A stretch of 63,955 nt of DNA, filler included, from Stramenopiles sp. TOSAG23-6 (Eukaryota), in the NCBI GenBank assembly GCA_900128565.1. It is 7 parts of 7 records of this genome, joined end to end, with 100 filler letters (N's around TTAATTAATTAA, not from the genome) between each part and the next. Parts side by side here need not be neighbours in the genome. Positions count along the whole stretch, not along the records: positions 1 to 10,349 come from LT636317.1; positions 10,450 to 20,795 come from LT636318.1; positions 20,896 to 31,222 come from LT636319.1; positions 31,323 to 41,646 come from LT636320.1; positions 41,747 to 52,065 come from LT636321.1; positions 52,166 to 62,483 come from LT636322.1; positions 62,584 to 63,955 come from LT639153.1. One strand, given 5' to 3'. The notes beneath the pieces were generated by a model that had not been told where the DNA came from, did no database searches, and saw nothing but the letters and a program-made list of their open reading frames with translations. The translations under genes were made by a program, and so were the position numbers. Shown here one piece after another: positions 1-63,955 of the stretch. Numbering within the stretch: position 1 is the first letter of the stretch; each line of letters starts with the position of its first letter.

Positions 1-63
1 TTAGGTACAAAATTTCGTACGAAAAATAAATTCGATTTTTTTGTAAAAAAAAAAATAAAACAT

Positions 64-1128
64 ACGTTGAATCGGCTTTATTAGCTAATTCAATAGCTTT
101 CTCTTGTAAAAAGTGTAAAAAATCCTGCACGAAGTTTAGTTGTGTTGGATAGTTAGGTTTATTCACACAAGGGAAAGACACACAAAACTGTCTTCCAAGA
201 TGACCGCGGGCAGATATTGATCCAGCACGATGCATGTATTTTGTAAAAATATTTCAAAAAAAATCTAAAAAATTTTGTTAGGTACAAAATTTCGTACGAA
301 AAAAAAAAAAAAATTTGAAAAAAAATAAAACATACATTGCTTCTAATAAGTACGGTCGAAGTTTTCTTTTTTCATGATGTATAGTAGAGTCCTTTTTCTT
401 TTTTACATTTGCATCATATTGCTTTATAGTTTCAGGTTTTTCAGGTTTTTCAGGTTTTTCAGATTCTTTATGTTCATTAGGGTTAGGGTCTTTATGTTCA
501 TATCCATCCGATCCAAACATAATATCAAATGCAATCATAGTGAATTCACAACTGATGCTCTCTCGACTTTCAGCATTTGCTTTTTTTGTTGCATCATGAA
601 GTAAAGCAGCAGTTACACTATATACAAGTGTTTCAATTTTTTGCCACATCATCTTCCAAGGTTCGCCTGTATACTCCTCAACTGCTTCCTTGACAATTTT
701 TGGAAGTGAAAATGTTGAGTGCCTTCCACTTGTCTTAAAGACGTTCTTATCCAATTTTTTTGATACTTTATGTTTTTCTTTTGCAATCTTAACTTGAAAA
801 TAATCTTGATACAAATGCAACTTCAACTTTGGTGAAACAGATTCTATAACTGCATGAACACGGATTTCGAATTTTCTTTGCTGTATAAGTAAACAGTCAC
901 TTACATATCTTGATACAATAGAGTGACTTCTCATCATATTTTGAAGTGTCATTGAAGGTAGCATGTATTTTGGAAAAATATTTCAAAAAATTTCTAAAAA
1001 GTTTGTTAGGTACAAAATTTTTATAAAAAAAAAAATCGATTTTTTTGTTAAAAAAAAAATTAAAACATACAACCAATGAAATTCTTTTGTTCCAGCACTA
1101 TGTCCTGAAACACCAGTTCTATGTAACC

Positions 1129-1163
<35 letters not shown>

Positions 1164-2284
1164 GTAGTAGTAGTACTATTTGAAATACGAACAAATTCTT
1201 CCAACTCTGTAGAATTATTAATATCAAAACTTTGGGGTGTCCATTGAAGTGCTGAATCTCCATGTATTTTGTAAAAATATTTCAAAAAAAAAAACTTAAA
1301 AAAAAAATTTGTTAGGTACAAAATTTCGTACGAAAAAATAATTCGATTTTTTTGTGAAAAAAAAAAAATAAAACATCCATATTCTTTCAGAGCTCGATGT
1401 AACAGAACTTTATCATCAATATTTCTTCCCAACCAGTCGCAAGAACTTCCACCACTATCAAACCAAAGATATACAAATATCTCAAGAGCTCGTACTGGAT
1501 CTTTAGCATATTGGGTTTCTTTTTCGATATTCTTCAGTTCCTCATAGGCAGCCATATTTTCTTTAGATGATGAACCAGACATCATTTGAAACTTAATGCG
1601 ACCTAAGCGTAGAGTATGACGAGAGTACCATGGCTTACCTTTTTTTGGCTCTTGAGGTAACTGAACTGAAAATGAATTATCAATACCATCAATATCTGAT
1701 ATTGTTTCAAATATGTTTAAAACTGATGTTTTGTCTGTGAAATAATTTGGTCGACCTCGGAACAAAAGTGTTTCTAATAGTAAGCGAGGCATTGCAAGAG
1801 AGCTTTTGGGTAAATATTTTGAATCGTTCTTTGAACGTGGATCAAGTGATAAAGCAGTTTTTGTGATAGAAAGTGCTTCATCAGGTCGGCTTTGATCAAT
1901 TAAGTTAAAGCCTAGACGAACAGCTACAAATCGGGATACCTCATTCATTCGTTTATCTGCTATATTGCCTTTTCTAACCGTCTCAACTGTATCAAAAAGA
2001 GTTCTTAACTCGTTTTCTGAGTCTTGTAGCAAACCTAAATTTTTCAGTTTCTCTGCATTATCAAGGGAATTTTGTACATATTCTGTGTATGAACTAAAAC
2101 TAAAAGTACATTCTTGAGAGTTATTATTACAGAACTCTTCAATATACTTTTCAAAAGGCTTTGTTTTCGCTATACATTGGTCTGTACCTATATCACTAGA
2201 ACAAAACGTCTCAGAGTGAATACTCCGAACTAACGAAAAGTCATTAAGTATGATATAAAATAAGAAAATGAAAAAATATTTCAT
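64..2284 (-). CDS. Tubulin-tyrosine-ligase (ATP-grasp)-like protein with hydrophobic N-terminus and a TPR-like segment; multi-exon, 3' part runs off the window
   Basis: RKFEIRVHAVI, LHLYQD, FTMIAFDIMF and RPYLLE resemble TTL/TTLL motifs. Introns at ~963-1070, 1262-1378 and ~234-336. Confidence 0.55.
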
Positions 2285-3485
2285 GGATACTTTTTAGAGA
2301 ATTATTTATAGGTAACCTGCGTCCGAACAAGGTTTACCTTCTGGAACCAAGATGTCCGAATTCGAATTTGAATTCCGATCAAAAATTATTATTGGCCGAA
2401 GGAATGTTACCGGGTAACATATTCATTCAAGTCAGTGAACACGAGTCAAAAAGAGTAAAAAAACACGAGGTTTCTTTTTGTTCTTACTTTGCGCAGAGAG
2501 AAAAAGAAAGAGGTAATGAATTCCGGAGACACACTATAATCTATATACGCATATTATGTGTGTATATAGATTATAGCGTCTTTTACAAATACATTTTTGT
2601 TTTTACTATTCAACTTGTTTTACTTTCTACCCTTTACAACTTGCTTCGAAAATATTGCCAACTTTGAGCTTCACCTCGATGTTGGCTTGTCACGATAGCT
2701 AGAATAATTGTGGGTTATCGACCATATTGTCGCTGCTTTTCTGACTTATGGCTTTCGTTGGGCATTCCCCTTTCGGAAGTTACCGGTCTGTGAATATTTC
2801 ATATTGTAATCCTTTTAAAGGGACCTTTACAGGTTATGTTTTTCTGTATGTTTTTTCTCTATTTTTTTTGTGTTTTGTTGTAGCTTGCAATGAAGAACTT
2901 ATCTAGGTGGGAATCTCGATGTAGCGCGGTTTTTATGTATACGGTGGAGACATTGATATACAAAATTCCGTGCAATGAAAACAAACTAGACCCTGAGCTC
3001 TGCTACTTGTACCATTTTATATTTACTATATTTTTTATCTACCTTTTTTTATTTTCACTTTATACACACTCTCCTCTCCATCCCACAAGAATGCCCACCG
3101 AAGAACAATCGTGTGGTAGGTTCACTTTGAATATATGAAATATTTTGATATTGTTGGATCTTAATAAAGAACTATAACAATTATGGAATGTATTCAATAG
3201 AAAGTAATGTTTATTATATACGAAAGATTGGTTTTAATCAAACCATATTGATTTTTCAACGTGAATAAATCTATTATTGAAAAAATAAATAGAATGTATT
3301 GATAATTCTCTTATTTTGAACATTTGTTTCCAGATTTCGTGTAGTAGTACATGATCGATCATAAAAATTTAAATGTCAAAATGGTCTGCCGCTTGGCATT
3401 TTATTTTTTTACATTTCGACAAGGAATACCTTGTGATTTTCATTCCTTTTCGACTTTGGCTTTTATTATCGGTTATATAAAACTG

Positions 3486-6316
3486 ATGCATTCCAATGGA
3501 AACGATAACAGTAAACCAATTGCATCGTTGGAAATGGTAGATGCTGCAGGACTTGAAGTAGGGACGAGTAACGTGTCAGTAAAAACACAGGAGGCAGAAG
3601 GCAAGAGTAACATGACAGCCAAGGAAAAGACGACAACAAAAACCAAAGAAAAGAGCGATAAAAAATGGAATATGTGGAAAGTTATCCTTATGGTATTTTC
3701 GATATTAGCTGTTCTTGCATTTGTTGTATGTGCCATTCTTAGCTTTGCAGGTGTCTTTAATAAGAGTAAAGATGAGAGCGTCGAACATCTCGCCACCTAT
3801 ACCTTGACTGGCACAAATGTTCGTATCTCAATGACTGGAAGTGTTCTACGTATGGAGGTCCCACTGGAAGATTCAACAACGAATGATATTGTTGAGTATA
3901 TTGCAAGTCTAAACGAGGGAGATGTCTATGGATATCTCAAGACAAAAGATTTTGTTGCTTCTTGGTTGAAAGGAATTCAAGCTCATGGAATGCTCTTCAA
4001 TATTGATTCAATCGTTAATACACAAAGCAGTAAATTGGTCATGAAGAATGTCGTACCTGTAGGAAAGCTTGTCTACGAACCTGCTGACGATTCAAAGGTA
4101 ATATGTAACAAATTCAAACGTAAATGCAAAGCAATTCCTCTTCGAACAATTGACTTTGAATTAAACGGTTTAAAAACTGAAAAACTCATGAACAATGGTA
4201 TATCCCAAAATTTTCTTGTCCTCTCTGCTTATGTACCTACATTTCCAAAATATATTCTTTCTCGTGTATCTCATGGACATTTTACAGAGGCCATAAACAG
4301 TCACCATTCTCATTTTGTTAATCATCCAACTATCTCCAATGTCGATCAAGATACTAGTATATTTTCTACAAACCCTAACCCTATTGGACACACGGCAGTG
4401 ATTAAAGTTGGTCTCTTAGGTGTTCTAGTGGAAGCGATTGTTATAGGTGTAGAGTTCGCAAGTGAAGCCGGTGCTGAAGCCGGTGCTGCTGCTGCAGAGG
4501 TAGCTGTTTCAACAACGGAAGGAACGGCAGAAGTGAGTAGTGAATTACTTGCGCAAATTACTCAGGTAAGTGCTGATTCATCTGTTGATATGTATGTTTT
4601 ATTTTTTTTACACGAAATTTTGAAATTTTTTTCGTACGAAATTTTGTACCTAACAAAAAAAATTACAAAATTTTTTTTTTTTTTCACAATATAGGAGTGA
4701 ATTAATGAGTGAAGGATTTTCTGAAGCTGCTGAATCAGCATCTGAAGATCTTGGCGAAGCTGTCACAGAAGATGCAGATGAAACAGTCGATGCAGCAGCA
4801 GATGAATTAAAATCAGTTCCGCAAAATAGTGTCAATAAAATGCTACAAGTTTTGACAAAATCAAGATTTTTAAATAATCCATTTATGAGAAAACTATCCA
4901 CTAATTTACGAACGTTAATGAGAAAATGTTTTGTTAAAACAACTGCACAAACCGTAGCATCTGAGGTTGTCATTGGTGGTATTTTATCAGTCATAAAAAG
5001 TGCTTGTCCAGCTTGTCGTGGTAGTGATATTACATCTTTTATTGTCCAAGAGTTGAAATCAATTGCAAATGGCGTGACAAATGCTACACTAATGAAAAAT
5101 TTGGAAAATTGTGTGGCTCCTACCTCTGTAAAAACAGCAGCAAAAGCGCTTGGTGTTGTTGTTGGATTAGGTACAGCGATGTGCGATGATTTGGAGACTG
5201 TATCATGTTGTGGTGGTGGGGATTTAGATACAAGTAAATATTGTGGTCCATTGGCTGCAATGTTTGTTTTCATCATGAATTTATGAATTTATGAATTTAT
5301 TTTTTTTTTCATACGAAATTTTGTACCTAACAAAAAAAATATGAAATTTTTTTTTTTTTTTTTCAATTTTTTTTAACAATACAGTTTAGCCATACAAAGT
5401 CCTGATCCTGATGTACGTTTTCACAATTTCAAATTTAATTTTTTTTTATAGGAAATTTTGTACCTAACAATTTTTTTTATATTTTTTTCAAATATTTTTC
5501 CAAAATACAAAGTTCCTGGTGTTCATTATTTCCTCAATTTGGTAATAACAAATGGGTCGCTACTATTTATGATACTCCATCGGGATGTAGTGGTTATTCA
5601 TGTAGAAGTTATTTTGTTGGTAAACTTTCATCAGATGCATCTTGTAGTGGTGGTGTTGTGACATATCCTCAAGGTGAAACGTGTATTTTTTTTTTCAAAA
5701 TTTTTTTTTCAAATAATTTTTTTTCAAAATTTTTTTTTCAAAATTTTTTTTTCAAACATTTTTTTTTCAAATAATTTTTTTTTTCAAAATTTTTTTTTCA
5801 AACATTTTTTTTTCAAACTTTTTTTTTTCAATTTCAAATAGTATTATATTCAAATAGTAGTATATTCAAATATAGCATTGTTCATTTTGTTTTTTATGTT
5901 TGACTAATTTCAAAAAACTATATTTATCTCTTCACTTCACACAATATAGGGTCATTTAGTCAATTGTCAGATATGTCTGATATAATGAATGTTTTATTTT
6001 TTTTTTTTTTCCGGTAAAAAAAAATCGAATTTATTTTTTTTTTTTTGGTAAAAAAATTTTGTACCTAAAAAATTTTTTTAAATTTTTTTTGAAATATTTT
6101 TCCAAAANNNNNNNNNNNNNNNNNNNNNNNNNNNNNNNNNNNNNNNNNNNNNNNNNNNNNNNNNNNNNNNNNNNNNNNNNNNNNNNNNNNNNNNNNNNNN
6201 NNNNNNNNNNNNNNNNNNNNNNNNNNNNNNNNNNNNNNNNNNNNNNNNNNNNNNNNNNNNNNNNNNNNNNNNNNNNNNNNNNNNNNNNNNNNNNNNNNNN
6301 NNNNNNNTTTAAAAAA

Positions 6317-6351
<35 letters not shown>

Positions 6352-6548: not shown

Positions 6549-6855
6549 TTTAATTTTTTTTTATAGTAAATTTTGTACGAAAAAAAAAAATTACTAAAAT
6601 ATATCCATGAAATTATAAAAAAAAAAAAAAACATTCAGACAATTTTTAATTGTACAAAGACAAATGTCAGATTTTCAATGAAACATAAATAAATTTGAAA
6701 TTCATAATGAAATGTTATTCTTATATTGGATAATATATGTATATTTCTATTTCTAGTGCTCACAAGATTTTTGAGAGGAATTAAAAATTTCATCATGAAT
6801 TTCAAATTTATTTTTTTTTATAGTAAATTTTGTACCTAACGATATTTTGTTTCGT

Positions 6856-7588: not shown

Positions 7589-8613
7589 TTATGATACAAA
7601 TGTTTTTGCTTTCCGGAAAGTATTTCCTACCACAACTTGCATATAATATTGTCCATTAAACATCGCAAGAAAAGCACAAAAACAACCTAATAAAGGATAT
7701 TGAGAGCAGCTTGTCGTACTTGGTCCATATCTTAGTTGTATTAATGTGATACACGCTACTGCCATAGAGTGCAAAAAAATATTTCAATTTTTTTTTTTTT
7801 TTTTTTGAGTACAAGATTTTTGTTAGGTACAAAATTTCGTACCAAAAAAAAAAAAATAAAAAATTAAATTGATAAATTGAGGTTAAAAAAAATGTACATG
7901 CAACCAGGGCTTCTTAGCCAAACATTAAGTCTTGCATTATGTCTTTTTTCAGTTAATTTGTCCATATATTGTAATTTTACCAAAGTTAGCCCATATTGTA
8001 AAAAAGATTTCAAAATGGTAGATTGGTTAGTTTGTTACAATATTTCGTATGAAAAAATAAATTTGAAATTCATGATGAAACCNTACATGAGATAGTCGAT
8101 TGCCCCTGGTAAACCGCATATAAAAAAGCTATATGTGTTTGATATTGGACCTGATTTACAAAAGAATCCTATACCACAGATAACGCCAACAAATAAAACA
8201 TGATGAAACCAATCAGCACTATCAGTGCTATATCGAATAAGGTGGTAAATATGTAACCCACTAATTATATAAAGCGGATGTTGAGAATATTCCCCTTGAC
8301 AGCTACTAATGGGATCAGAGAACGCTTTATAAACGTCAGGAAAAGAAAAGTACGTGACTGCAAAGTTTCCTGCTGAATGTAATGCAAACCAGCCAGCTCT
8401 TGAACCACGGAAAAATATAAAATCAAAAGCGGCCAATCCGATTAACCAAATCGACTGCCAATAGATATCATCAAAAAGTTCACGTTGAACATTTTCAGAA
8501 TCTCGAGGAATGATAATGTACCATACAATACAAACAATACAGAACGCTAGGAACACTTTCGGAGTACATGCTGGATGTGAACTATAAGACTGATATGCAG
8601 ATTTCGCTGGCAT
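7589..8613 (-). CDS. TLC (TRAM/LAG1/CLN8)-domain-like multi-pass membrane protein, 3 exons
   Basis: DWFHH motif; GLPGAIDYLM-LTLVK and WLRSPG restored by removing introns 7991-8086 (GT..GG) and ~7765-7897 (GT..AT). Confidence 0.65.
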
Positions 8614-9623: not shown

Positions 9624-10296
9624 TCATTTATTCTTTTTTTCATCATTCTCAAACATTTCATCATCAACTTTTGTTAACCTCAATTTTTCAGTATGCATTG
9701 ATAAATATTCACTAGTTGCAATACGTACAAAATGATACGACATCCACTGAAATAGTTTAGTCTGTATTGAGCGATTCTCCCAATCTTCATATAGTATGAA
9801 AAAATATTTGAAAAAAAAATTTTGAAAAAAATTCGTTAGGTACAAAATTTCGTACGAAAAATTAACTAAATTTTTTTTAAAAAAAATAAAACATACATAC
9901 GTCATTTCTTTACAATCATTTAAATTTTGCATAAAAATATCTTCTAATGCACTTGCGACATCTCGATCAACAATAGCACATGTTAATTCTAGATTTCGTG
10001 TATGTGACCATCGGTCCCAATTATAACTGCCAACAATTGAAAATAATCCATCCACAGTAATCGTCTTGGCATGTATTGTGAAAAACAAAAAAAACAAAAA
10101 AAAATTCGTTAGGTACAAAAGTTCGTATGAAAAAAAATTTAAAAAAAATTTGAAAAAAAAAAATTGAAAAAAAAAAAAAACGTACATGCAATGGTTGAGT
10201 AGCTTCTAATTCGAAAATACGAACACCTTTTTTTAGCAATAAACCATAAATATGTGCTGATGCAGCAACCATAATAGGCCGAAACAATGGAGATAC
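9624..10296 (-). CDS. Phospholipase D superfamily / bacterial-type cardiolipin-synthase-like protein, C-terminal part (5' cut by contig end)
   Basis: After splicing: LLKKGVRIFE...LHAKTITVDGLFSIVGSYNWDRWS...NLE (HKD motif) and EMTYEDWENRS. Confidence 0.85.
10071..10185 (-). other. Non-canonical intron GT..AT splitting the PLD catalytic HxK motif
   Basis: CAT|gtacgtttt...cacaatacat|GCC AAG gives L-H-A-K-T-I-T-V-D. No GT-AG register is possible. Confidence 0.85.
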
Positions 10297-10349: not shown

Positions 10350-10449
10350 NNNNNNNNNNNNNNNNNNNNNNNNNNNNNNNNNNNNNNNNNNNNTTAATTA
10401 ATTAANNNNNNNNNNNNNNNNNNNNNNNNNNNNNNNNNNNNNNNNNNNN
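10350..10449. other. Artificial contig linker N-TTAATTAATTAA-N (also ~20840, 31267, 41691, 52110, 62528)
   Basis: Six-frame stop linker embedded in Ns, spaced ~10.42-10.45 kb with decreasing intervals, as expected for size-sorted contigs. Confidence 0.95.
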
Positions 10450-10522: not shown

Positions 10523-11802
10523 ATGTATGACAGTAATTTTTCAGGAGACCGTCTAATGTGGCCTCTATTTATTGTCCTAATTTTTACTTTAGGTGTAGTA
10601 TTCCTCACATTTGTTGCTACCTCGCGCACATGGATATCGCTGAGCTTAGTGGCTCTAACTATGACGATAACAATTTTCCACCATATTGTAAGCTGTGTAT
10701 CATGCAACACGCCTGGATTTCATTTCCAAAAAAGTATTGGAAATGTATTACATATGCAAGTTCAGAAAACAATGTGTGATACTTCCTCTTCGACGAATAG
10801 TGACGTATTCCTCTTCCTACATGGCCTGCTTGCATCCGGGCGATTCTGGAAAAACACAGTCAAACATCTCCTTAAAAAATGTGAATCTTCGTGTGTCTGT
10901 CTCACACCTGATCTTCTCGGTTTTGGCAAATCTCCTTATCCAAGTTCTAAAGCACGATATACTTGTGATGCCATGGTTCAAAGCGTGTTGGCTAGACTAC
11001 GCTTATATAACACTTCTAGTGGCAACAATAAAGGAAATGTCAGACGTCTACACATTGTTGGTCATAGCTTAGGTGCAGTCATTGCTACGGAAATTGCAGC
11101 ATCACTTTCTAAAAAAGAGCTTTGTGGCTTCAAGCTAGTCTCTCTTACTTGTATTAGTATGCCATTTTTTTCATCAGAAGCTGAAGCAAGGAAGGAGATA
11201 CGACGATGTACCCCGGTTCAAAATTACTTTCTAGAATGGCCAATTTCAACATATATTCTCTGTAGCATTTTTTGTCAACAGAGATGGCTATGGAGGTTAC
11301 CTCTACGAGCTATTGTCTTTTTAACTGGCTCATTTATTCCAGCACTGAGTCTATCATCCGAAATAGTAGACGACTTCTTTCTGCACTCATGTATGTTTTA
11401 TTTTTTTTCAAATTCGAATTGTTTTTTTCGTACGAAATTTTGTACCTAACGATTTTTTTTCAAATATTTTTCAAAAATACATACTATTCAGCACGATATT
11501 GTATGGAACAATGTGTAGTTGGTCACACTCTTCATTATGCAGCACAAAAGTTAAAAAAACATAAGCTCGCAGTCTCTGTACTACATGGATCTATTGATGG
11601 TAGTGTCAATGTCTCACATGGTCGAGAATTTGCAGAACTTGTTGGAGGTGCATTTATTGAAGTCGATGGTATCGGACATCTTTGTGGTTCGGATAAAGGT
11701 GCTGGGCTAGAAGAATTGTGTGAAGTATTATTACTGCAAATGAGTCGCGGACATTCAGTCTGTACTAAAGAAACGTACATAAGTTGTATAAATACAAAAT
11801 AA
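10523..11802 (+). CDS. Alpha/beta hydrolase with N-terminal TM segments, 2 exons
   Basis: LFLHGLL, PDLLGFGKS, GHSLG nucleophile elbow, HGSIDG and GIGH. Intron 11391-11482 (GT..AT). Confidence 0.85.
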
Positions 11803-20795: not shown

Positions 20796-20895
20796 NNNNN
20801 NNNNNNNNNNNNNNNNNNNNNNNNNNNNNNNNNNNNNNNTTAATTAATTAANNNNNNNNNNNNNNNNNNNNNNNNNNNNNNNNNNNNNNNNNNNN

Positions 20896-31132: not shown

Positions 31133-31322
31133 TGTATGTTTTATTTTTTTTCAAATTGGAATTTTGTTTCGTACGAAATTTTGTACCTAACAAATTTAAG
31201 TTTTTTTTTTTGAAATATTTTTNNNNNNNNNNNNNNNNNNNNNNNNNNNNNNNNNNNNNNNNNNNNTTAATTAATTAANNNNNNNNNNNNNNNNNNNNNN
31301 NNNNNNNNNNNNNNNNNNNNNN

Positions 31323-41435: not shown

Positions 41436-41746
41436 CTTCTATTGTATTTGTGATCATGCGATGATTGAATAGACAGTTTTTGAACAAGGATATTTCCTTA
41501 GTGTAAAGCGTTTTTTGACATTTATGTGAAACGGTCAATTTTGTTCTCAGCTGCGCGCGCCGGATTTCGTGCGATCGAGCAGCTCAAAATGTTCTTCTCT
41601 TTTCTTTTAGAACTCTCTTCGTTCTTTTAAAAAAATTTAAAAAAATNNNNNNNNNNNNNNNNNNNNNNNNNNNNNNNNNNNNNNNNNNNNTTAATTAATT
41701 AANNNNNNNNNNNNNNNNNNNNNNNNNNNNNNNNNNNNNNNNNNNN

Positions 41747-44127: not shown

Positions 44128-46032
44128 ATGCAATCTACAAAACATCACATCATAGGTGTTGAACCCATGGATGAGAGTTTGCGTCATGATATGTATTCGA
44201 AAGTTGAAGAGAATAAATTACGAGAATCTCTTCTTGAACCTGTTTGCCTCGGATCTGGTCCTTTCTTATGTCGATGTAGTTCATGTTTTATTTTTGGCTT
44301 AGTAGTACCTATTTTAGTTTTTGTCTTCCTTTACTCCCGCCCAGATGAAGATTCTGAGACGGTACATGCCATTTCGCTATCCATTGTAATAGTTGGTTTA
44401 ATATTTGGTTTTGTTTTATTGTGTTCTGGAATTTTTCCAATTTTACTTAACTCTACACCTCCAAAACCTCCCCCACTTTATCCCTTATTGAGTCAACATC
44501 ATATTAGAAAACCTAAAAAGGTCTATGTTATAGTAAATCCAGCGGGTGGCAAGAAACAATCTCGAAAAATTTACAAAAGAAGTGTTGTACCAAAATTCTC
44601 TGAAGCAGGAATTGAACACAGCTTATTTGAAACTAAATATCCTGGCCATGCGAAGCAGTTATGTGCTACTTTACCTCTTTCTGGTTTTGATGCTATCATA
44701 ATCATTGGTGGTGATGGAACATTTCATGAATGTGTCAATGGCTTATTTTCGCGTAACGACGAAGAAACCCGGCCTGTCGGTTTGTTACCGGGAGGCTCTG
44801 GTAATTCCGTACTTACGGATTTTCATATACAAAATGATGTTAATGGAATTTTGGACAACATTATTTCCGGTCGCTTAGCAAATATTGATGCGATTAAAGT
44901 AACACATGGTACTTTACCACATCATACTAGATGGAGTATCAATGTTGTTGGTTATACTGCAGATCAGTGTATGTATGTTTTATTTTTTTTCAATTTTTTT
45001 GTCTAAAATTTTTTTTTTTGGTTTTCGTACGAAATTTTGTACCTAACAATTTTTTTTTTTTTTTTTTTGAAATATTTTTCCAAAATACATGTCTGGCGTA
45101 AATATTGATGTATGTTTTCACTTCACACAATCCATTGTTACCCCCTAACCCTAATAACCTTAATAACCTTAATAACCCTAATAACCCAAATAGTCTAGAT
45201 TGTACCATTTATTTTTTCCTACTAAATTTCATAAATAATATTTTTTTGACTAATTTTTTTTTCAAACCCTAACCCTAATCTTATTTTTTTACAATCTATG
45301 GATGGCGTTCACTACTTGGTACAGCTCGTTATGACGTTTGTGGTCTCTGGGGTTTACTTAAAGGACGTTCATCTGATGTTCAAGTTTGTTTTCATGATGA
45401 ATTTCATTTTTTTTTTTTTTTCATAGAATTTTTTTTTCATAGAAATTTTTTTTTTCATAGAAATTTTTTTTTTTCATAGAAATTTTTTTTTTCATAGAAA
45501 TTTTAATTTTTTTTTTTTTTTTCCACAGGTAGAAGTTGATGGTAAATTATATAAAAGAGGTGTTGGGGCAATTTTTATCAATGCAACTCAGCATTTTGGT
45601 AAAGAAATGTGGGCGTGTCCGAAAGCCTTGCTAGATGATGGAAAGATGAATATCGCTTGTATGTTGAAAAAAAAAAATTTTTTTTTCGATTTTTTTTTTT
45701 TTCGATTTTTTTTTTTTCGATTTTTTTTTTCCGAGATAATTTCATACCTAACCTAAAGAGTCAAATATTTTTGAAATATTTTTTATACTATATGTGTCAA
45801 TGGATCTCGTGCTGAAATTTTACGGATTTTTAATTTACTAAAATCTGGACGACATACCACATTAGTATCAAATGCTACAGCGTCTCATATTTTGTTGAAA
45901 CTTCCTGTTGAGACAGGTTTGTTCAATATAGATGGTGAGGTTGTCGTGTTCCACCAACACGAAATCTCACTAGAAATACATCCTGGTAAAATCGAGTTCT
46001 ATGTTCCTGATCGTAATCCTACAGCTTATTAG
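44128..46032 (+). CDS. Sphingosine-kinase / DAGK-catalytic-domain lipid kinase with two N-terminal TMs, 5 exons
   Basis: IVNPAGG, ETKYPGHA, IGGDGTFHECVNG, LPGGSGN, LGTARY, LDDGKM, FNIDGE. Includes a 19-nt exon at 45091-45109. Confidence 0.88.
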
Positions 46033-48014: not shown

Positions 48015-48869
48015 ATGAACAAGTTACGAAAGAAAAACATTCTACAAGTATACTTTATTTGTATCATTTTCTATACGGGTCATCTATACACAGCGACATC
48101 CTCTTCTACATCAATCACAGTAAACGTCGCGAGCATTGCAAATTGTAAAGGTTCAAGAAACTGCCGAAGACCAAAACGATTTCGCGAAAACCCATCGGAA
48201 GCGCAACGTCCAAGCCCTAAAACATCTAAAACGTCTAAAAGACGTAAACGACATCTACCAAAGTCACAAATTGAAAAGGAAATAAACGGCGTAGTATCTC
48301 CTGCGTCACGTCTTGGTGAGTCTTTGTTACACATGATTGACAAAGGAAATTTTGAAGCTGCACGTGAACTGATCGAACAGGGAGCTAACGTAAATACTCG
48401 CACGGACCCTCGGAACCCAAGCGGGGAACAAAGTCCACTATTTTTATTTCTTCTTCGTACACAAAAAAACACAGATTACACTATTTTCAATCTTTTACTT
48501 CAAAAAGGTGCTTGTGTAAATTTTCAAAATCGATTTGGATATACACCTTTATTTGTGGCACTAAAACGATACAATGAAGTACCAAATGCAAAAAAGATGA
48601 TCTTTACAATGGTTGAAAGATACAGCGCAAATTTAGACGTTACCTGGATTGATGAAAGCGATAGAGAATACACAAGAGGTGGATATATTGGGTTTATGTG
48701 GAGTCCGCTTTATTTTGCTGTACACTATAATGATATTGAATTAGTAAAATTATTCATGGAATATCAGAATGATTTAAATTTTGCAACTGACGATGGAAGC
48801 ACACGTACTTTTATTATTATTCATTATATTGTCATTGATTTCATCACTTTTAAAAATTTTAAAAATTTT

Positions 48870-48902
<33 letters not shown>

Positions 48903-49636
48903 CATAGTAAATTTTGTACCTAATGATTATTTTTACTCCAAAACAATCAAAACAATATTTTTTTACAGTATATCCTTGCATAAAGCAATTCTAGAAGGTT
49001 TTTCTACAATAATTGCAGTATTGTTATCTAATGAATATGTCAAAGTAAATGTAACAATGATGGCTCCATTGAAAATGAAGCTTAACCCTAACCCTAACCC
49101 TAACCTTGATCCATATCAGGAAAGTAAAAGAATTCGTGTTTCTCCTTTATATATCGCAACATTTAACAATGATGTAGATACGGTCCGTAGACTACTTTTC
49201 AAGAATGCGAATGAAAATCTTGCCCATGAAGTATTTTCAATTTAAATATTTTTCATACGAAATTTTGTACCTAACAAAAAACTTTTTTTTTTTCAATTTT
49301 TTTCAATTTCAATTTTTTTCAATTTTTTTTTTTGTAGTACAATTTCATACCAAAGGCAAACAAAACAAACAAAATTTGAAATATTGTCCAACAACACATG
49401 GAACGATTCATTACACGCCACCTTGTCCTTTTGAACTAGCGACTAAAAAAAAATATACTGAAATTGTAAAACTTTTGGAAACAGTACCGGGTATCCGATA
49501 TGTACAAAAAAAAAAACTTGACCACAAAAATGACAATGACAAATTTGTTCCAACGACACATCCACTTGATAGCAGTTTTTCAACTGGTACTGCTGAGGCA
49601 TTGGATAGCATTTTTTTCGATGGTATAGATTGGTGA
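48015..49636 (+). CDS. Ankyrin-repeat protein, 3 exons
   Basis: GANVN, GYTPLF, SPLYFA. TPLHKA restored across intron 48805-48973 (GT..AT). Confidence 0.8.
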
Positions 49637-49987
49637 ACTAACTAGGGTTTTTCGGGATGTTTGGATTGTAGGGTTAGGGTTGTTGTTGTAAAAATTTTTA
49701 TTTTTTTATTTTTTTATTTTTTATACAATGTTTTTTTAAAATTGTTTTTTGTAGGCAAACATTTTTGTTTCGGTGCTTGTAAGATCATTCCTATATATAA
49801 AACTAAGCGTATTATATGTATCTATATACAAAAACAATAAAAATAATAAAAACAATAAAAACAATAAAAACAATAAAACAACCTTTTTGAATATTCACAC
49901 AAATTCGAAAACATTGAATAATAAAATATATCATTATTTTTTTTATAATTTTGACAGTGAAATTTAAAAAATTAGCTATGAAATTAT

Positions 49988-50913: not shown

Positions 50914-51770
50914 ATGTCAGCTACTTCAGAGATCGTTCGAGGCATTCCTGTACACTTTCCCTTTCGCCCATATACCGTACAAAAGCTATACATGGAAAAA
51001 CTAATCGAAGCTCTTCAAACTGGCAAAAATGCTCTTCTAGAAAGTCCAACAGGTACCGGAAAGACTTTATCTTTACTATGTGCCTCGTTGGCATGGCGTC
51101 GTGCATACTTATCACTACATGAAGTATGTCGGCGTGAACGTAAATATCAATATATGCCTCGTAGTACAACTCAACTAAAGCCACACGTTCTTCGACAGAT
51201 GAGAAACGAATTATTGTCTCAGGTATTTGGTACACAATGGTATGATAATCCTAAAGTAATACAGCTATTATCTGATTTATATGGTCCAGAATGGACACCA
51301 AATAGAAACAAAGGTGGATTTGATATAAAGGGTAGTCATAAATCCATAAAAGGCATTGGAGTATATAAATATCTTTCGGACGACATTGATCGATCAGTGA
51401 GGAACCCTAACCCTAACCCTAACAATAGTAAAAGTCTTGGTGCAACTGGTCCAAATCCAGATTGGTTGCGAGGTTCTACAGGTTCAAACATGCATGAACG
51501 TACACGAAATCCACCCCAAATTATTTACGCATCTCGAGTATGTCTTTCCTTTAAAAAAAGATTGATTTCAAATTCAGTTCAAAAATTTTAAAAATTTTAA
51601 AAATTTGGATTTTTTTTCATAGTAAATTTTGTATCTAACAAAAATATAAATTTTTTTTTGAAATATTTTTCATACTAAGGACTCACAGTCAATTAACACA
51701 AGTTGTAAAGGAATTAAAAAATTCAAAATATAAACCTAGAATTGCTGTACTTGGATCACGACAACAATTA
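50914..51770 (+). CDS. XPD-family Fe-S DNA helicase (RTEL1/FANCJ-like), N-terminal part only
   Basis: [52 protein letters not shown]. Intron 51538-51680. Confidence 0.9.
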
Positions 51771-52164
51771 TGTCTGTTTTATTTATTTTTTTATTTTTTA
51801 CAAAATTTTATTTTTTTTTTTTCATACGAAATTTTGTACCTAACAATTTTTTTTTTTTTTTTTTTTCACATCAAATAATCGCCCACACATTAGATAAATT
51901 TATCATCACTTCCAAAACATTTGCTGGTTCGATTACGGATGAGCTTTGTTTTGGTATCGAAAATAAAGTCATTGGGAGTGATGGTAGAGAGCAAATAATC
52001 ACGGTTGAAATGGATGGTTTTATGTTCGTTTCATAATTAAGTTTTTTTTTTTTTTTTTTTTTTTTNNNNNNNNNNNNNNNNNNNNNNNNNNNNNNNNNNN
52101 NNNNNNNNNTTAATTAATTAANNNNNNNNNNNNNNNNNNNNNNNNNNNNNNNNNNNNNNNNNNN

Positions 52165-52764
52165 NCAAAGAAAGCTGCAAAAAACGCCGCGAATAAGGAA
52201 GCTGCTAAAGGGACAGGAAATGACCCAAAGAATGATTCAAAGAAAGCTGCAAAAAACGCCGCGAATAAGGAAACTGACAAAGGGACAGGAAACGACCCAA
52301 ATAATGATCCAAAGAAAGCTGCAAAAAACGCCGCGAATAAGGAAGCTGCTAAAGGGACAGGAAACGACCCAAAGAATGATTCAAAGAAAGCTGCAAAAAA
52401 CGATGCGGATAAGAAAGCTGCTAAAGGGACAGGAAATGGCCCAAAGAATGGAACAAAAGAAAATGGCGAAGGGGCAGGAAAAGTAGTGAAAGTTAAAGGA
52501 CCTACGGAGGCAGCAGCAAAAGTGACTGCCAAAAAGGTAGCTGAAAACAAAAAAAAAGAAGTTGTCACACACATAGCATCCGTGGGTAGTAGTAAGGCAC
52601 CAGCAGAAAAAAATGATATTTTTATCATAACTGGTGATAATGCTTCTACCAGGAGTAAACCCACCACATTGAACCCGAATAATGACACAATGTCATTGAA
52701 CCCAAATTATGCTACATCGCCACCACTTATTCATTTAGGTGTTCCTGGTACCGGTACACCCTAA
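52165..52764 (+). CDS. Fragment of a Lys/Ala/Asn-rich protein with ~60-nt tandem repeats
   Basis: Four to five units KKAAKNAANKEAAKGTGNDPKNDS; 5' end lies in the gap. Confidence 0.55.
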   Translation, partial: XKKAAKNAANKEAAKGTGNDPKNDSKKAAKNAANKETDKGTGNDPNNDPKKAAKNAANKEAAKGTGNDPKNDSKKAAKNDADKKAAKGTGNGPKNGTKENGEGAGKVVKVKGPTEAAAKVTAKKVAENKKKEVVTHIASVGSSKAPAEKNDIFIITGDNASTRSKPTTLNPNNDTMSLNPNYATSPPLIHLGVPGTGTP

Positions 52765-53075: not shown

Positions 53076-54691
53076 CTATCCATCATTTGAACTATACACT
53101 GGTTGTTTTGGTAATCTATAGTCTTCTCTCTTTATAGCACGATCAACATGAACAGTTTGTGAAAAAGGTTGGTAAGATACTTGAAAAGGTCGACCAAGGG
53201 AATCGGCGAAGCGTCTCATTTGTGTTTTAGCATCACTCAAAGTGTCTGCTACAAAATATGTTGGTTGGTATGTTGTAATAGGATATTCTTGCATTCCAGC
53301 AACATCTGGATCCCAAGGTAAATATGTAGGAAAGTTATCTTCACCTCCAGCTGGACGCAACGCCGAGCAGGCATATTCCAATTCACCAAATGAGGATAAT
53401 AAACCTGCTCCATACGCTTTCAATGCCCCATATATTGTGAAAAAATATTTTTTTTTTTTCGTAAAAAAACAGTTTGTCAGGTACAAAACTTGGTACAAAA
53501 CAAATAAATTCGATTTTTCAATTTTGAAAATGTACATCTTGACGACATAAACCAAATTCAACAGAAAACCAGTAGCACGTTGCTAAACGTTTAATATCAG
53601 CATCACTAGCTCCCAAAGATGCAAGTCCAATTTCATGAGAAAAATCAGCAAAATCAGGATCTGCAAACATTGGAGCATGCCCAAGTAACTCATGACAAAT
53701 ATCAGGCTCTGGCGTATATAAAGGAGTTGAATGGTGCCTAATATATTGGGTAGAGAAGAAAACACGAAATGCAAGACCATTGAGAAAGTCGCGTGCTGAT
53801 AGTAATCCACCAACGGGTCTCAATTGAAATCCTGTACAGTCACGTAGAAAATCACTGTTTTGTGAAAATTTAAAACAATATATATTTTTCCGTTAGGTAC
53901 AAAATTTCGTATGAAAAAAAATCGAAATACTTTTTGTTGATGAAAACGGACCTGATATCTTGTACTTGAGGAATGTTATCTGAAGCATATCCACAATTTT
54001 TTTCCATTAATGGAAGGATGTAGTTAAACTGTTTGCATGCATAATGAGGGAGAAGTTTTCCTAATCTATCATAAACAACACCCCATGTTGCAATTTCATC
54101 TTCATTATAATCTACATAAGGTATTCTACCACCTTCACGAAAACTAAAGCCAGTAGAGTAATTCACAATTTCTTTTCGACGTTGACGATATTTTTCATCT
54201 GTGAAACCAGGATGGTCTGCTTCAAGATCAACACCAGCATCAAGCGTTTCATTGGCAAATTGATCAAGATCTTCCAGTTTTCGTGGGAACCATGGTACAA
54301 GTTGAGGTTCTTCTTCTTCTATTTTGGGACAGACTCTTTTCAAGTCATTTAGCAACTGCTCTGCACGGGAAGGTTCCTGAACTCTAAAGTCTACGTGAAA
54401 GTTGTAAGATGCAGAGTTTGCGATCTTTGTAGGTCGCGACTCTATTCGAGTCATTGTGATTGAATTAGAACGAAAAATTTTTAATACCTCTTCCAATGCA
54501 CCAGGCTTGTTCGCAGAAGTTTGGAAAACAATACTTCTCTTTGAACTTTCGTTGGGTTTAGAGAATCTTTGTTGTGCTGAACTTCCTCCACGTGCAGAGC
54601 TGCCAGACTTTTTCGTATGGCCGCTACATAGGGAACGCGTAAAAGTATTGTACAATCGCATTGCACGGAATCGTTTAAAGATCATCGACAT
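53076..54691 (-). CDS. PAH: Phenylalanine 4-hydroxylase (ACT + biopterin-dependent aromatic amino-acid hydroxylase), 3 exons
   Basis: [65 protein letters not shown]. Introns 53855-53951 (GT..AG) and 53430-53535 (GT..AT). Confidence 0.95.
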
Positions 54692-55008: not shown

Positions 55009-57129
55009 ATGAGACTAAGTGGCTTACTTCAGCAACGCATTCCTAGAAAAACGTCCGGTAGAAAGTCTCCCGAATTTATCGAGGGACGCAAAACAGCTTT
55101 TAAAGATGTATTTGTAGGTTTTTTGGCAATCCTTTGCACTTGGTCAGCGGCTTCTTTGATTGCACTTGATTTTGCTACGCTTTTGCCTACCCAACTTTCT
55201 CCATTCTTACTTCTTGTGCAAGCGCCACTCGATGCTGCTTCATACTTATCACTGACTTGTGCCGCACCAGTTGCACACATATTAGGGGTACTACTCATAA
55301 AGGAGTACAAGTTTTATAATCCGCTCGGAGGCGGACAAACGTTTGTATACATGCAGGCTGCAGGTTGGAGTGCTTATGGAATTGGTTTATTTTTTGTAGG
55401 GGTTGATAGTATACGGCAGTTTTGTAAGTTTTCAAGTCTGTGTCAATCAGACTTGTGCATTACTTGTACCGTATATTCTATATTCTACATTCAATTGTTA
55501 CACTTCTGTATGACGTCGCTATGTATTTATTTCTTTTATAATTGAAACATTTACACATTATATCCAGGATTCATCATATTCCTTGCTCTCGTTTTAGCTA
55601 CTGGAAATACGCTAATCATTTGGAGTTTATATATGATTCAACCAATCACTTCTAATGAAGGACAAGTTCAAGAAAAAAAACAGCGGTCCCGGGAAAGGTT
55701 CCGTTCAAGGTCTCTTTCTCCACCGCCTCTTTCATTTTTACTGCGAGAAACTAAATCTAAACTAGAAATGAATGTCCCAAAAAAATATGAACATTTAAAA
55801 GTGGAGCAAAAACGAAAGGCTGCGGAGAGAAAATTGGTTTTTGATTGTACAATAATGTATGTTTTATTTTTTTCAATTTTGAGTTTTTTTTCATACTGAA
55901 TTTTGTACCTAATGTTTTTTTTTGAAATATTTTCCAAAATACAGGATATTTGGTATGTGCGGAATCGTTGGAGCTATTTTGAAATCCCATCCTCATATAG
56001 AGTTACGTAGTGAAAGGGATTATATATTCGGTGATGGTGATCAAATGGAACTTCCATTTTGTGAAAAACCTTATGCATGGAGTGGAACGATAGCACAGCT
56101 ACCATCTTTTGTATTACATTTACCATATGTACCAGTGATGATTCTATTATATAAATTATTTGCGTGGAACTTTTTGAACAAAAACAAAAAGGACTCCAAA
56201 AACACGAAACAAACGAAACATACCAAAAACCCTAACGCAAACATTGTTTCTTGTAATTATTTGATACCGTTTAATTTGAATGGAGACCAACTTGAGTTTG
56301 TATTTGGTTTGATATGCTTTCAGATATGGACCTCTATTGGTCACATTGTTGCCAATCCTAGATCACTTCATGCACGTTTTCATGATGAATTTTAGATTGT
56401 TTTTTTCGTACCCAATTTTGTATCTAACGAGTTTTTTTTACTAAAAACAAATATTTTTTCACAGTACATATACAAGAATCGTCAATATGTATCAGTTTGT
56501 TCATTCTTCGGGCTTTTATGAATTCGTTATCTTCATTACCTAGTGATAAAATAAGTAAGAAAATTATGGTGAAAATATTAGTATATATGTTAAGCAGCTA
56601 TAATTTATTTGGCCTTATGCCAACGATAATATTTCCAGGTATTGTACGTTTTCAACATTGAATTTGAATTTTTTTTTTCCTAGAGATTTTCGTACCTAAT
56701 GAATTCATTTCAAATTCGACATAAGTTTTCACAATACGTGTCATGGTATCTGCTCTATTTTTTATGGTTGGTTCCGATAATTGTAATAACTGTCGGACTG
56801 ATATCACAATGAAAAAAACGTATCAAGAAAATAATGATAGAAACAAAATGAAAAGTGGTACTATTATTACACCGAAATTCTTCCGCGTAGGTGCTTTGAT
56901 GCCTGAGCTAACTAATTTAGGAAAAGTCGCAATATTAGGGCTTCTTTCTTTTTCAATTGTAATATTAGTACTTGAAGTCGAATTGTGTGAGACTTTATTA
57001 GAAATAGCTCCAAATATATCTTGGCATGCACCTTTTGATTTTGTATTTTGGCAAATATTTTGGGTTCAAGTTTTAATTATTTGTTTGTCGAAACCAGGAA
57101 GTGTGTGGCGAAAAAAAATAAAAAGATAA
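55009..57129 (+). CDS. Multi-pass membrane protein, multi-exon; C-terminal half loosely ceramidase/CREST-like
   Basis: Many TM segments; FCE, S.IGH and WH motifs. Introns ending AG, AG, AT (GC start) and GT. Confidence 0.45.
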
Positions 57130-58225: not shown

Positions 58226-60439
58226 TTATTTGCCATTTGTCATTAGTAATAAGACAGCCCTAGTTCTATCGGGTATAGGTTTCCGTGCACAAACTATAAA
58301 AAATGCATTCGGTGGAAGTTTACTTTGAACAAGTCGAATTTTTGCGGCCAGACTTTTTGTTTTCTCATTATATTTAGAAGATTGACTACAAAAGTTACTT
58401 GAAGAGATACTACTACTTTCATGAGTAAAACTAGAATTATTAGACTGACCACCAGACAAGCAACATGATATGAACCGTGGGACAGCGACTGTACTTAAAT
58501 TATTTTGTTGTAACATTTTTAATGTATACTGAATTGTTGATTGGTCGTTAGTACATTCTTGAATTCTTGCTGGCGATTCTTTATGAATTTTTAGATCACA
58601 CTTATTACTTGATATAACTAAGCATTCAGAAGAACTACCAGAGGTAACATTGGAACTACTTATTACTTTTGGTTTAAATATCATTTCGCATAAGGACATT
58701 TTTGGCTTATTCGTTCCATTGGCAGAACCGAAAGAGGAACCATACTTCATTTTCTTCTTAACTAAGTCTAGAGCCGCTATTGCATCTTCTGAACTACAGT
58801 GTCCCAGAGAACCATGATTTTGTATTATTCGATCTAAATGCGTTTTACTTAGCCATAAAAAGTGAAGAAATATTTGAGTTTTTTTTTTTGTTAGGTATGA
58901 AATTTACTATAAAAAAAATTTGAAAAAATTTTGAAAAAAAAAATCAAACATACAACGGAGACTACTTTTGTATTGACCTAATCGAGCATGAGGATAAATG
59001 ATGGCAGTGTCAATCACTTTATTATGAACTAAATGTAAGGCTTTGAAGTCACATTCTAGAGAGTGGCCAATAATAATTGTACTTGCAGTTAGAATTGGTG
59101 ATTTTTCTGATTTTGTTGTAGTTAGAATTGGTGATTTTTCTGATTTTGTTGTAGCTGCTGCTATTGGTTTTTGTGATGTCTCTGCAATTTGTCCCGTCAG
59201 TTGAAATTGTACATCTTTCAAAGTTGTTGAAACACCACTCAGCATTTCTTTTGTAATTCCACTATATTGCGTCAAATAATCAGTTATGGTATGTTGTGGT
59301 AAAAAAAATTCCAAAGTGTAAAAAAATCGTTAGGTACAATATTTCGTACGAAAAAATAAAACAAAAAATGAAAATTAAAAAAGTACATGTTGTGGTATTA
59401 CATAAGTATCATATATAACATTTCCATACCAATCTACTACAGTAACACGAGCTAACTCATGGCCATGATCAGTCATAACCATCTCGCAATCTAATGCTAC
59501 TATTTTGTCAAAATTAAATGTATCATCCGAAAGATCTTTCTTAACTGTTGTTTTAGATAAATCATCAACTTCTTGAACTGTACTGACATAACCATGTGGA
59601 ATTTTAGGCACATTATTCTTAGTGTATTTAAAAGTAGGATATTCATTCTCTTTAAGTTGTTTATCCGTCATGAGAAAATTTGACGCCGGGAATGAATATT
59701 CAAGACTAACTTTCAACTTTGCTCTAAGTTTCTCTTTTTCACAAGTTTTCGCTTCACAAATAAGTTTTTGCATTACTTCTTTTTTCTTTTGTTTTTGTTC
59801 ACGTCGTAATAAAGCTGCTTTTGCCATTTCAGATTGATATAATTTCTCTATTGATTTCAATTTCTGTTTATCAATAACACACAGTATCGAAGAAGAGAGT
59901 CGTGGAATGTTCTTGTCACTAGTATTACGCCGCTTCAAACGAAGGTTCAGTGCAGAGCAAGTAGGTAAATTATGCAGTGCATAATCCCAATTTTTTCCAA
60001 TTGATGAAGCCCAACTGGATATCTCGTCTCCACCATCTTCAATTGTCATTACTACAATAGTGCTTAGTATAGGAATATTTTTCGCAATGATCCACTTTGG
60101 CATTTGACCAAGTGAGGCTGTGAGAAGCCACTTTAACAAGTTCTGTAGGTCATGCGTAGATATCGTCCACGGTTCTAAATGATTACCCTTTATAAGCATT
60201 TTCCGCTTTAATTCAAAATTAAATCCAATGAGTGGTGTGCCCGCAGGAGAGGTTGGAATACCGTTGGAACGGAAATAGTCAGTACTTTGTAATATAGCTA
60301 TGTCTTTTGTTTTCGTCGTTCCATCGCGAAATCTTTTGGCTGCACGCTTTGCTTTAGCTGATGGGTTCGGGGGCTCTTTACGCTTTAGCAAAACTGGCTC
60401 ATCACAGAATCGAACACCATCAGATGGTTTAGTGGTCAT
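58226..60439 (-). CDS. DEDDh RNA exonuclease (REXO1/Rex1-like), 3 exons
   Basis: ALDCEMV, ELARVTVVD, DYLTQYSGIT, IIGHSLECDF, VIDT, SLRWLS, GHCSSEDA. Introns 59291-59386 and ~58855-58953, both GT..AT. Confidence 0.92.
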
Positions 60440-61691: not shown

Positions 61692-62583
61692 CCGTCTTGC
61701 TCTTGGACATACTGGTGGTGTTTTTGGTGCAATTGTAACTCTATTATCCAGAAATGTTATTCGGTGTCGTTTTATTCATTGGTTGTTTACGTAAAATTTG
61801 TAACTTTTTATGATAAAACAATCTGAAAAATATGAAATTTTCTTTTTTCTTAATCCTTTGTGGATGTGTTTCTTCTTTTCGTAGAAGTTTTTTCATACTT
61901 GCTCAACCTAATGATGCATGTTTGTCTATATTGAGTCCCCTCCTTTTGACAAAACTTGTTTTTGTCAAATCTTGCTGTACACTATGCCTGAAGATTTTAT
62001 GTAAAACTTCCTTTCATTTTTTGTGTGATTTCATTTAGTTATACTTATTTTCGTTTAAAGAAATAATACTTATTCAGGATTTTTCTTAATATAGATCTTT
62101 TACTTCACTGAACAAAAACTGTTAAATCAATAAAAGGAACCTACATCTCCCGGTACAATAAACTAAAAATATGTTTTAAGTTTTTTATCGTGTTTCTTCT
62201 GGAGCTCCACTATACCCATGCGTCAAACAAATCGACGTGACGTTTTCGTCGTTTTCGTGTTGTGCCACGCTTTTGACAGATTTTGATGAAATTTCATAGC
62301 AAATTTTGTATGTAATTTCATTTTTTGTTTTTTTTCATAAGAAAATTTGTAGGTAAAAATATTTCAAATTATTTTTGTCTTCAAATTAAATAAAAATGTT
62401 CCATTAGGGTTAATTTTAAGACAAAAATAATTTGAAATATTTTTACCTACAAATTTTCTTATGAAAAAAAAATAAAAAATGAANNNNNNNNNNNNNNNNN
62501 NNNNNNNNNNNNNNNNNNNNNNNNNNNTTAATTAATTAANNNNNNNNNNNNNNNNNNNNNNNNNNNNNNNNNNNNNNNNNNNN

Positions 62584-63170: not shown

Positions 63171-63504
63171 TTAAATACGTTCAGAAAAATACACAACGAC
63201 AACAGTGATATCTTCAATATTATGCTTCCTTAATTTTGCATTTGCTTTTGCACCTTGTACTAAAGCAGTGACGGCATATTTTGTGAAAAAAAAAAACATT
63301 ACATTTTGTTAGGTACAAAATTTCGTACCAAAAAAAAATTAAAATTTTTACATTGAAATTCATGATAAAAATGTACATGCTCTGGTTTAATATAACTTCC
63401 AACTATATTGCAAACTGTTTCCATAGTCATATATTGTAAAAGAGCATGTTTTGTAAAGATATATACAAAAAAATACAATGTTTTTATTAGGTACGAAATT
63501 TTGT

Positions 63505-63551
<47 letters not shown>

Positions 63552-63770
63552 TGTGACTTGAACAATTTTCAATTTTCAATTTTCAATTAAAAAAAAAAAT
63601 TGAAATTTTTGGAAATTAAAATCTTTCAACAATACAATTATTGAAACTAAACAATGAAGTGTAAACAAAAAAAAATGAATTGTAAAAAACGAACATGCGT
63701 GCTACACACAAGAAATCGATCCTGGACCAAAAGTTTTCTCTTTACAACACAAGGGTCTGAAATAATACCT
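63171..63770 (-). CDS. C-terminal part of a PP2C(PPM)-like domain with degenerate metal-binding residues
   Basis: Spliced: IISDPCVV...DRFLVCSTH|ALLQYMTMETVCNIV...H|AVTALVQGA...EDITVVVVYF*. Introns 63446-63694 and 63276-63376 (GT..AT). Confidence 0.65.
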
Positions 63771-63889
63771 AGAATATAAATAATATTTTTTTTTTTTTTT
63801 TTTTTTTTTTTTGGTATGAAATTTCGTAAAAAAAAAAAAAAAAATTTTTTTTTTTTTTTTTTGTATGAAATTTTTTTTGAAAATTTTTT

Positions 63890-63921
<32 letters not shown>

Positions 63922-63955
63922 GTTAGGTATGAAATTTCGTATGAAAAAAAAAATT

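Follow-up and report, generated by a model that had tools for sequence, protein, structure and literature searches.

The stretch analysed here, referred to as the window, comprises 63,955 bases (745 of them N) of the genome assembly of Stramenopiles sp. TOSAG23-6. Contigs have been concatenated in it, each joint consisting of 44 N, a 12-base linker with stops in all frames and another 44 N (10350-10449, 20796-20895, 31223-31322, 41647-41746, 52066-52165 and 62484-62583); since the window is contigs strung together, gene neighbourhood across the joints is meaningless. Its GC content is 28-40%, and its dense, eukaryotic genes encode IFT140 (an open reading frame, ORF, of 1603 codons), kinesin, WD40, ankyrin, RhoGAP, DAG kinase, PLD-like, TTL, uL22 and phenylalanine hydroxylase (PAH) proteins or domains, the long ORFs being read with the standard code. 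Spread over these unrelated genes is one homologous family of introns, which is real and very dense. Nearly all of its members start with GT and most end in AT. We consider it likely that this family is introner-like, with copies that bring their own donor and branch box, end in a fixed register mostly without AG, and have been colonising genes.

A dense family of introns with mostly non-AG ends

The earlier note on this DNA had claimed that over 40 copies share a literal motif. The 22-mer in question matches at only 28 places with up to three mismatches (nine exact, nine with one, five with two and five with three), against none in 100 shuffles; the claimed number does hold for the 13-mer core TTTTGTACCTAAC, found 40 times with no more than one mismatch, and for the element as a whole. 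A family profile built from 25 aligned copies gave 50 nhmmer matches (cut-off E < 0.001) in 64 kb, which merged to about 47 places, i.e. approximately one per 1.4 kb or 0.7 copies per kb. Aligned, the copies form one family with at least two subfamilies distinguished by their spacers, which are indeed the variable T and A runs first described. The best pairs of copies, located in different genes, reach 96% identity over aligned columns; pairwise identity has a median of 0.63 (0.53 shuffled) and a maximum of 0.91 (0.69 shuffled). Outside low-complexity sequence, 9-mers are common to 54 (left spacer) and 106 (right spacer) of 595 intron pairs, versus 15.6 and 8.1 in shuffles. Several family-like introns have inner units amplified in tandem: T-run plus CAAA units at 5671-5927 (+), the left arm of the core at 45384-45528 (+), and the entire core box, doubled, at 42886-43039 (-).

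Boundaries were set by coordinates for 39 copies. Three of these were dropped (7993-8086, with N in its 5' end and a broken frame; 38587-38665, without ORF context; and 45384-45528, with unclear ends) and three 3' ends were re-set by reading frame (42432, 51677 and 51890), leaving 36 curated copies of 88-169 nucleotides (nt). Of the 36, 34 begin with GT, one with GG and one with GC, and the donor hexamers are GTATGT, GTACAT or GTACGT. At the other end, AT was found in 26 copies, AG in five, and AA, TT, CT, TA and GT in one each; 32 of 36 have an A at position -2. The non-AG acceptors of the earlier note are supported: most copies, 31 of the 36, lack an AG end.

Two lines of evidence suggest that these copies are spliced out in this register. 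First, flanking open frames are longer on the copy's own strand in all 36 cases, i.e. every copy lies sense within an ordinary gene, and in 29 of 39 copies (13 expected by chance) a cut before the GT and 2 nt past the conserved 3' block leaves a downstream frame longer than the other two. For the copies at 21213, 40441 and 43129, the downstream frame is open across the entire short next exon.

Second, protein colinearity was restored at all four junctions tested, three of them GT..AT and one GT..AG. When 53855-53951 (GT..AG) and 53430-53535 (GT..AT) are removed from the PAH gene, its protein aligns with eight homologues over both junctions; the two closest (about 65% identity) show no gaps at either, and two more distant ones have an insert of their own, 6-7 residues long, directly 5' of the GT..AT junction. 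Likewise, removal of 59291-59386 and 58855-58953 (both GT..AT) from an exonuclease gene restores conserved motifs and yields a protein that aligns gap-free with 13 homologues. The public gene model P0165 (58229-60439 (-); 99% identity in the part that matches) imposes GT-AG introns on this gene. As a result, 37 residues conserved in the 13 homologues are missing from it at the first junction, and a single residue at the other. Because no AG-ending alternative yields conserved proteins, the non-AG 3' ends are well supported, if only at the protein level, and three predicted non-AG junctions are confirmed by homologues at residue level.

The branch-like box and the placement of the 3' end

The earlier note had put the CTAAC of the box about 35-60 nt from the 3' end; measured in 35 copies, the distance has a median of 41 nt and falls within 32-59 nt in 33 of them. 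Between box and end, AG dinucleotides number 15 where 28 are expected from composition, and occur in 12 of 35 copies. In three introns an AG lies close to the end and is out of frame, while a cut 2 nt past the 3' block is in frame: 48805-48973 and 56372-56469 (AG 5 nt inside the end) and 51538-51677 (AG 2 nt beyond it). Judged by the ORFs, these cases point to a positional rule for the 3' end. In 42432-42592, an AG 30 nt further on is apparently used.

The self-complementarity of GTACGAAA and TTTTGTAC is present in the consensus, as had been observed; the core hairpin proposed on this basis is not supported. Its left arm is variable (CGTACG, CATACG, CATAGG, TATAG and others), whereas right arm and box are fixed. 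Over 35 copies, 68.2% of cells show the six proposed pairs, as compared with 68.0% after shuffling and 72.7% when the partner is slid by -2, and the covariation score (0.058; shuffle mean 0.072) gives no sign of compensatory change. As pairing in the core is no better than in the controls, the constraint appears to be on the box, plausibly as a branch site, and not on a hairpin. A hairpin joining the ends of the whole intron was also considered, but folding of 20 of the 36 copies gave z from +0.46 to -2.1, with one exception at -5.6, and such a hairpin was rejected as general to the family. All copies and relatives are listed below.

Table 1. Family introns, other copies and possible relatives in the window. 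Slashes mark intron boundaries, with exon bases in lower case.
Position	Strand	Ends	Gene or remark
234-335	-	at/GTATGT..ATACAT/g	TTL-family gene
963-1070	-	tt/GTATGT..ATACAT/g	TTL-family gene
1262-1378	-	at/GGATGT..ATACAT/g	GG at donor; 117 nt, frame open; unspliced, it would add 39 residues without a stop
4592-4694	+	GT..AG	family intron
5262-5384	+	GT..AG	family intron; donor GTTTGT
5413-5510	+	GT..AA	family intron
7764-7897	-	GT..AT	sole strongly folded copy (z -5.6; T run facing A run)
7993-8086	-		N in 5' end; frame lost in standard register; not counted
9789-9896	-	GT..AT	PLD-like gene
10071-10185	-	GT..AT	PLD-like gene
11391-11482	+	GT..AT	alpha/beta-hydrolase gene
21008-21119	-	GT..TT	least certain 3' end
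21213-21323	-	GT..AT	96% identity over aligned columns with 1262-1378
21698-21789	-	GT..AT	WW-domain gene
27149-27237	-		counted among the 36; frame fits just GT..AC (27151-27237) or AT..AT (27149-27235); ambiguous, listed end uncertain
27393-27485	-	ga/GT..AT	WD40 gene
31134-31222	+		cut off by contig joint (N)
31862-31983	-		diverged member; family ends, without core box
35026-35116	+	ct/GT..CT	CRAL-TRIO/RhoGAP gene
38587-38665	-		short, family-like; no clear ORF context; not counted
39482-39592	+	GT..AT	family intron
40441-40541	-	GT..AT	precedes short last exon
42432-42592	-		by frame, AG used 30 nt past usual family end
42886-43039	-	GT..AT	core box doubled
43129-43229	-	gt/GT..AT
44973-45090	+	GT..AT	3' of DAG-kinase domain
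45384-45528	+		family-like; core left arm tandemly amplified; ends unclear; not counted
45659-45793	+	tt/GT..AT
48805-48973	+	ac/GT..AT	ankyrin gene; AG 5 nt inside end is out of frame
49231-49399	+	aa/GT..AT
51538-51677	+	ga/GT..TA	AG 2 nt beyond is out of frame
51772-51890	+	at/GT..AT	3' end placed by frame
53430-53535	-	GT..AT	PAH gene; homologues confirm junction
53855-53951	-	GT..AG	PAH gene; homologues confirm junction
55857-55944	+	GT..AG	directly 5' of start codon
56372-56469	+	GC..AT	AG 5 nt inside end is out of frame
56644-56739	+	GT..GT	family intron
58855-58953	-	tt/GT..AT	DEDD-type exonuclease gene; 13 homologues confirm junction
59291-59386	-	GT..AT	exonuclease gene; 13 homologues confirm junction; 10-nt direct repeat, upstream exon end/intron end
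63276-63376	-	GT..AT	family intron
25215-25310	+		intergenic palindromic relative; centre is a perfect GTACGAAA/TTTCGTAC; CCTAAC on right arm; nhmmer E 4.6e-6
6808-6850	+		truncated copy outside ORF: core and part of left spacer, no termini
62321-62478			foldback, 69-nt arms with core-like and 3'-block-like stretches; possible relative

Origin of the family and alternative readings

According to the introner-like reading, one family of short spliceosomal introns, about 90-135 nt long, would have colonised the genes of this genome. Each copy would come with a donor of the strong U2 type (GTATGT, GTACRT), with a 13-nt box whose last bases are the branch-point-like CTAAC, approximately 41 nt from the 3' end, and with U-rich tracts and the conserved 3' block (C)A(A/C)AATAC. 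Exactly 2 nt past this block the intron would end with any two bases, AT in about 72% and AG in 14%. We infer that the ancestor was a small palindromic, non-autonomous DNA element that inserted preferentially at AT, in the context (C)AT/G, such that the last two intron bases would be the duplicate of the target. The major spliceosome would remove a copy by means of the element's own donor and branch site, with the 3' cut set by position relative to the element's 3' block and not by AG. A bolder version, to which we give only tentative credence, is that the major spliceosome cuts at a fixed position from the 3' block or the branch site, has no need of AG and ignores AGs 2-5 nt away; an element with a 2-bp duplication would then be a perfect intron anywhere, and the source of nearly all introns of the genome.

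An origin from a miniature inverted-repeat transposable element (MITE), as the earlier note had envisaged, is plausible, and so is its target-duplication reading. The intergenic sequence at 25215-25310 is an 80-nt palindrome (DNA fold -24.5 kcal/mol, z -7.5), truncated copies exist outside ORFs, and whole-copy self-complementarity is weak but consistent (median z 0.89; positive in 30 of 36, above 2 in seven). The inverted repeats that the note describes at the termini are short: GTA..TAC in 16 of 36 and GTAT..ATAC in nine. The foldback at the end of a contig, whose arms (62321-62389 and 62410-62478) are 96% complementary and which matches the profile weakly, may be a relative or parent element. 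In 23 of 36 copies the exon flank is AT, as compared with 10.6% in the background, the next exon begins with G in 19, and intron phases are near even (14, 9 and 13). Furthermore, the PAH genes on five long metagenome contigs (53-62% identity) are uninterrupted at both intron positions, although these relatives are distant and may be intron-poor.

Several observations weigh against the introner-like reading. Splicing and its exact register are derived from reading frames and protein colinearity, and 10 of the 39 copies were out of frame in the standard register at first pass (of these, three were re-set by frame and three dropped). In 20 of 36 copies the two exon bases before the GT recur as the last two bases of the intron, so the repeat reported earlier is there, but the excess expected of target-site duplication is not significant in this window (mean of 17.1 on permuting the flanks; P = 0.07). 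The count stays near the permutation level because both positions are mostly AT (23 of 36 flanks, 26 of 36 ends), and the only non-AT matches are CT/CT (35026-35116) and AG/AG (53855-53951). Of the copies whose flank is not AT, eleven have an AT or AG end, and the nine with AT fit an intrinsic AT end as well as they fit duplication. The 10-nt direct repeat of 59291-59386 far exceeds the usual 2 nt, a length for which a 2-bp duplication does not account. Terminal duplexes are weak (mean -2.5 kcal/mol, versus -1.5 for shuffled ends). No transposase domain was detected in 39 translated stretches of the window, so the autonomous partner that had been suggested was not found there, and the 22-mer was not found in public metagenome contigs or genome contigs, i.e. 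no copies were seen outside the window. (The 16-mer gave 28 single matches in viral contigs, every one in unrelated viral coding sequence.) In the 20 copies with identical flank and end, GT..AT, TG..CA and AT..AC introns give the same mRNA, and in three copies the donor position lacks GT, having GG, GC and, in one reading of 27149-27237, AT. Finally, no non-family intron was established anywhere in the window, and a lineage-wide splicing grammar is therefore not cleanly separable from the family.

The last point leads to the strongest alternative, namely that no mobile element is involved and that the shared blocks are the extended splicing signals of this lineage (donor, branch box and 3' block) in old introns of convergent likeness. 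Conservation does peak at three or four blocks while the left arm of the 'hairpin' decays freely; moreover, all recognisable introns in the window share this architecture (the canonical candidate by RPL17 being better read as the ORF's own stop), and the direct-repeat excess falls short of significance. We nevertheless consider this explanation improbable. Sequence outside the blocks is common to copies far above shuffles, spacer motifs define subfamilies, and copies in different genes reach 96% identity. In addition, core-bearing copies, one of them a strong palindrome, exist outside introns, phases are even, and five relatives have no introns at the two PAH positions.

There is still less to be said for boundaries that are really shifted by two bases, most copies then being AT..AC introns (ATGTATG...AATAC) and not GT..AT. 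The mRNA is the same in both registers for the 18 copies with AT as flank and end, the GG copy (1262-1378) and the GC copy (56372-56469) remain AT..AC when shifted, and 27149-27237 keeps its frame as GT..AC. However, the shifted register starts with AT in just 23 of 36 copies (elsewhere TT, AG, GA, CT, GT, AC or AA) as against GT in 34 of 36, and the five GT..AG members, one of them confirmed by homologues, fit the standard register alone; on these grounds, and because the donors are classical U2-type, we prefer the GT register. U12-type introns have an ATATCC or GTATCC donor and the branch site TCCTTAAC 10-20 nt from the 3' end. Neither feature was seen in this family: its donors are GTATGT, GTACAT and GTACGT, ATATCC was not found, and the box lies a median of 41 nt from the end. 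The likeness to U12-type AT-AC introns is that a shift by 2 nt makes about half of the present copies AT..AC, with a 5' dinucleotide that is not conserved in that register.

That copies are removed from DNA, as are the internal eliminated sequences of ciliates, and not spliced from RNA is hardly credible: they are short, AT-rich, precisely bounded and mostly without AG, interrupt coding sequence, and have small terminal inverted repeats and dinucleotide direct repeats, but all 36 are sense to the host gene, a bias for which strand-blind excision would have no need, they combine a strong GT donor with a branch-like box, five have ordinary GT..AG ends, 16 lack the 2-nt repeat at their ends, and the long ORFs read with the standard code. 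Excision of ciliate-type sequences is independent of gene strand, with TA at both boundaries; the boundaries here are AT/GT..AT/.

Host genome and comparison with known systems

The source genome would be that of an uncultured marine flagellate, compact and AT-rich. The source label of P0165 suggests the MAST-3 group of marine stramenopiles, which we take as a lineage hint only. Among named organisms, the nearest relatives of the window's proteins scatter over plants, oomycetes, diatoms and ciliates; a EukProt protein with 65-66% identity gives the best match. Seawater metagenomes contain parts of the window; three metatranscriptome runs and several seawater DNA runs match it, in shares that are small and not evidence of anything. 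Scans of the window with Rfam and for tRNAs gave no matches, a homologue search with the ORF upstream in the TTL gene gave none, two exons searched against PDB found no match, and Pfam returned just weak ankyrin matches for ten exons beside informative introns. Past the uL22 (RPL17) ORF, a GTAAGT..CAG stretch at 25436-25510 (-) was at first read as a canonical intron; this reading was rejected because the ORF has a TAA stop of its own and a length in keeping with solved uL22 proteins. Within contigs there are telomere-like CCCTAA/TTAGGG and degenerate CCTAA(T)AA runs at 45100-45300, near 9600, at 42370-42390 and at 49672-49690, one of them directly 3' of the intron 44973-45090 and a 19-nt exon-like piece.

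Because the introns start with GT and mostly end in AT, standard gene finders mis-read the host genes. Models of this genome restricted to GT-AG delete or shift conserved protein segments, as demonstrated for one gene by P0165, and in proteomes from this assembly every gene that carries a copy is probably affected. Introner surveys that use annotated or canonical introns would be biased as well. If RNA confirmed the GT..AT junctions, one transposon-like family would dominate the introns of a free-living protist; the combination of a conventional donor and branch site with a non-AG acceptor would be a natural experiment on 3' splice site choice and on how intron gain can go on without a pre-existing AG.

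The literature search returned no description of the present family; supplements, which may carry intron statistics, were outside this search. The word 'introner' was not met together with MAST-3, MAST-4, Nanomonadea or Incisomonas, and the family's motif strings were met just as chance primer text. The main text of a paper devoted to MAST single-cell genomes speaks of introns in its methods alone.

Large introner surveys depend on annotated introns, and a later survey discarded families with mainly unfamiliar splice sites unless they were confirmed by transcripts (PMC12130899). Introners that carry a donor and co-opt the 3' site from the duplication have already been described (10.1101/2022.06.06.494994). 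As in the present family, short non-coding repeats with an internal donor make introns in unrelated genes, each intron closes with bases that resemble a second copy of the insertion site, and mRNA length is unchanged; the present family differs in its co-opted end, which is AT in about 72% and not AG, and in that duplication and transposase are putative. Micromonas and Aureococcus introners are likewise high-copy, intron-generating DNA elements with terminal inverted and direct repeats (summarised in PMC7789003).

Closer in other respects are the introner elements of Amoebophrya, also a marine protist, which have inverted repeats at their ends, short direct repeats at the boundaries and non-canonical splice sites, and lack a transposase within the element (PMC7789003). 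There, however, both ends vary without a clear dinucleotide signature, the inverted repeats of 8-20 nt form hairpins and the direct repeats measure 3-5 nt, whereas the present family has a GT donor in 34 of 36 copies, a yeast-like branch box, terminal repeats of 3-8 nt and weak predicted pairing. Most introns of the larvacean Fritillaria borealis also escape the GT-AG rule (10.1101/2025.08.15.670264), and, as described here, they include 3' ends with A at -2 and a variable last base, among them AU (10.1101/2025.08.15.670264; 'AG-A(N)' pattern quoted in PMC7789003). This organism is an animal, its 5' ends are non-GT too, and recognition has been tied to duplicated, diverged U2AF subunits and modification of small nuclear RNAs (10.1101/2025.08.15.670264). 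What sets the present family apart from these systems is a conventional donor and a yeast-like branch box combined with a mostly AT acceptor at a fixed register.

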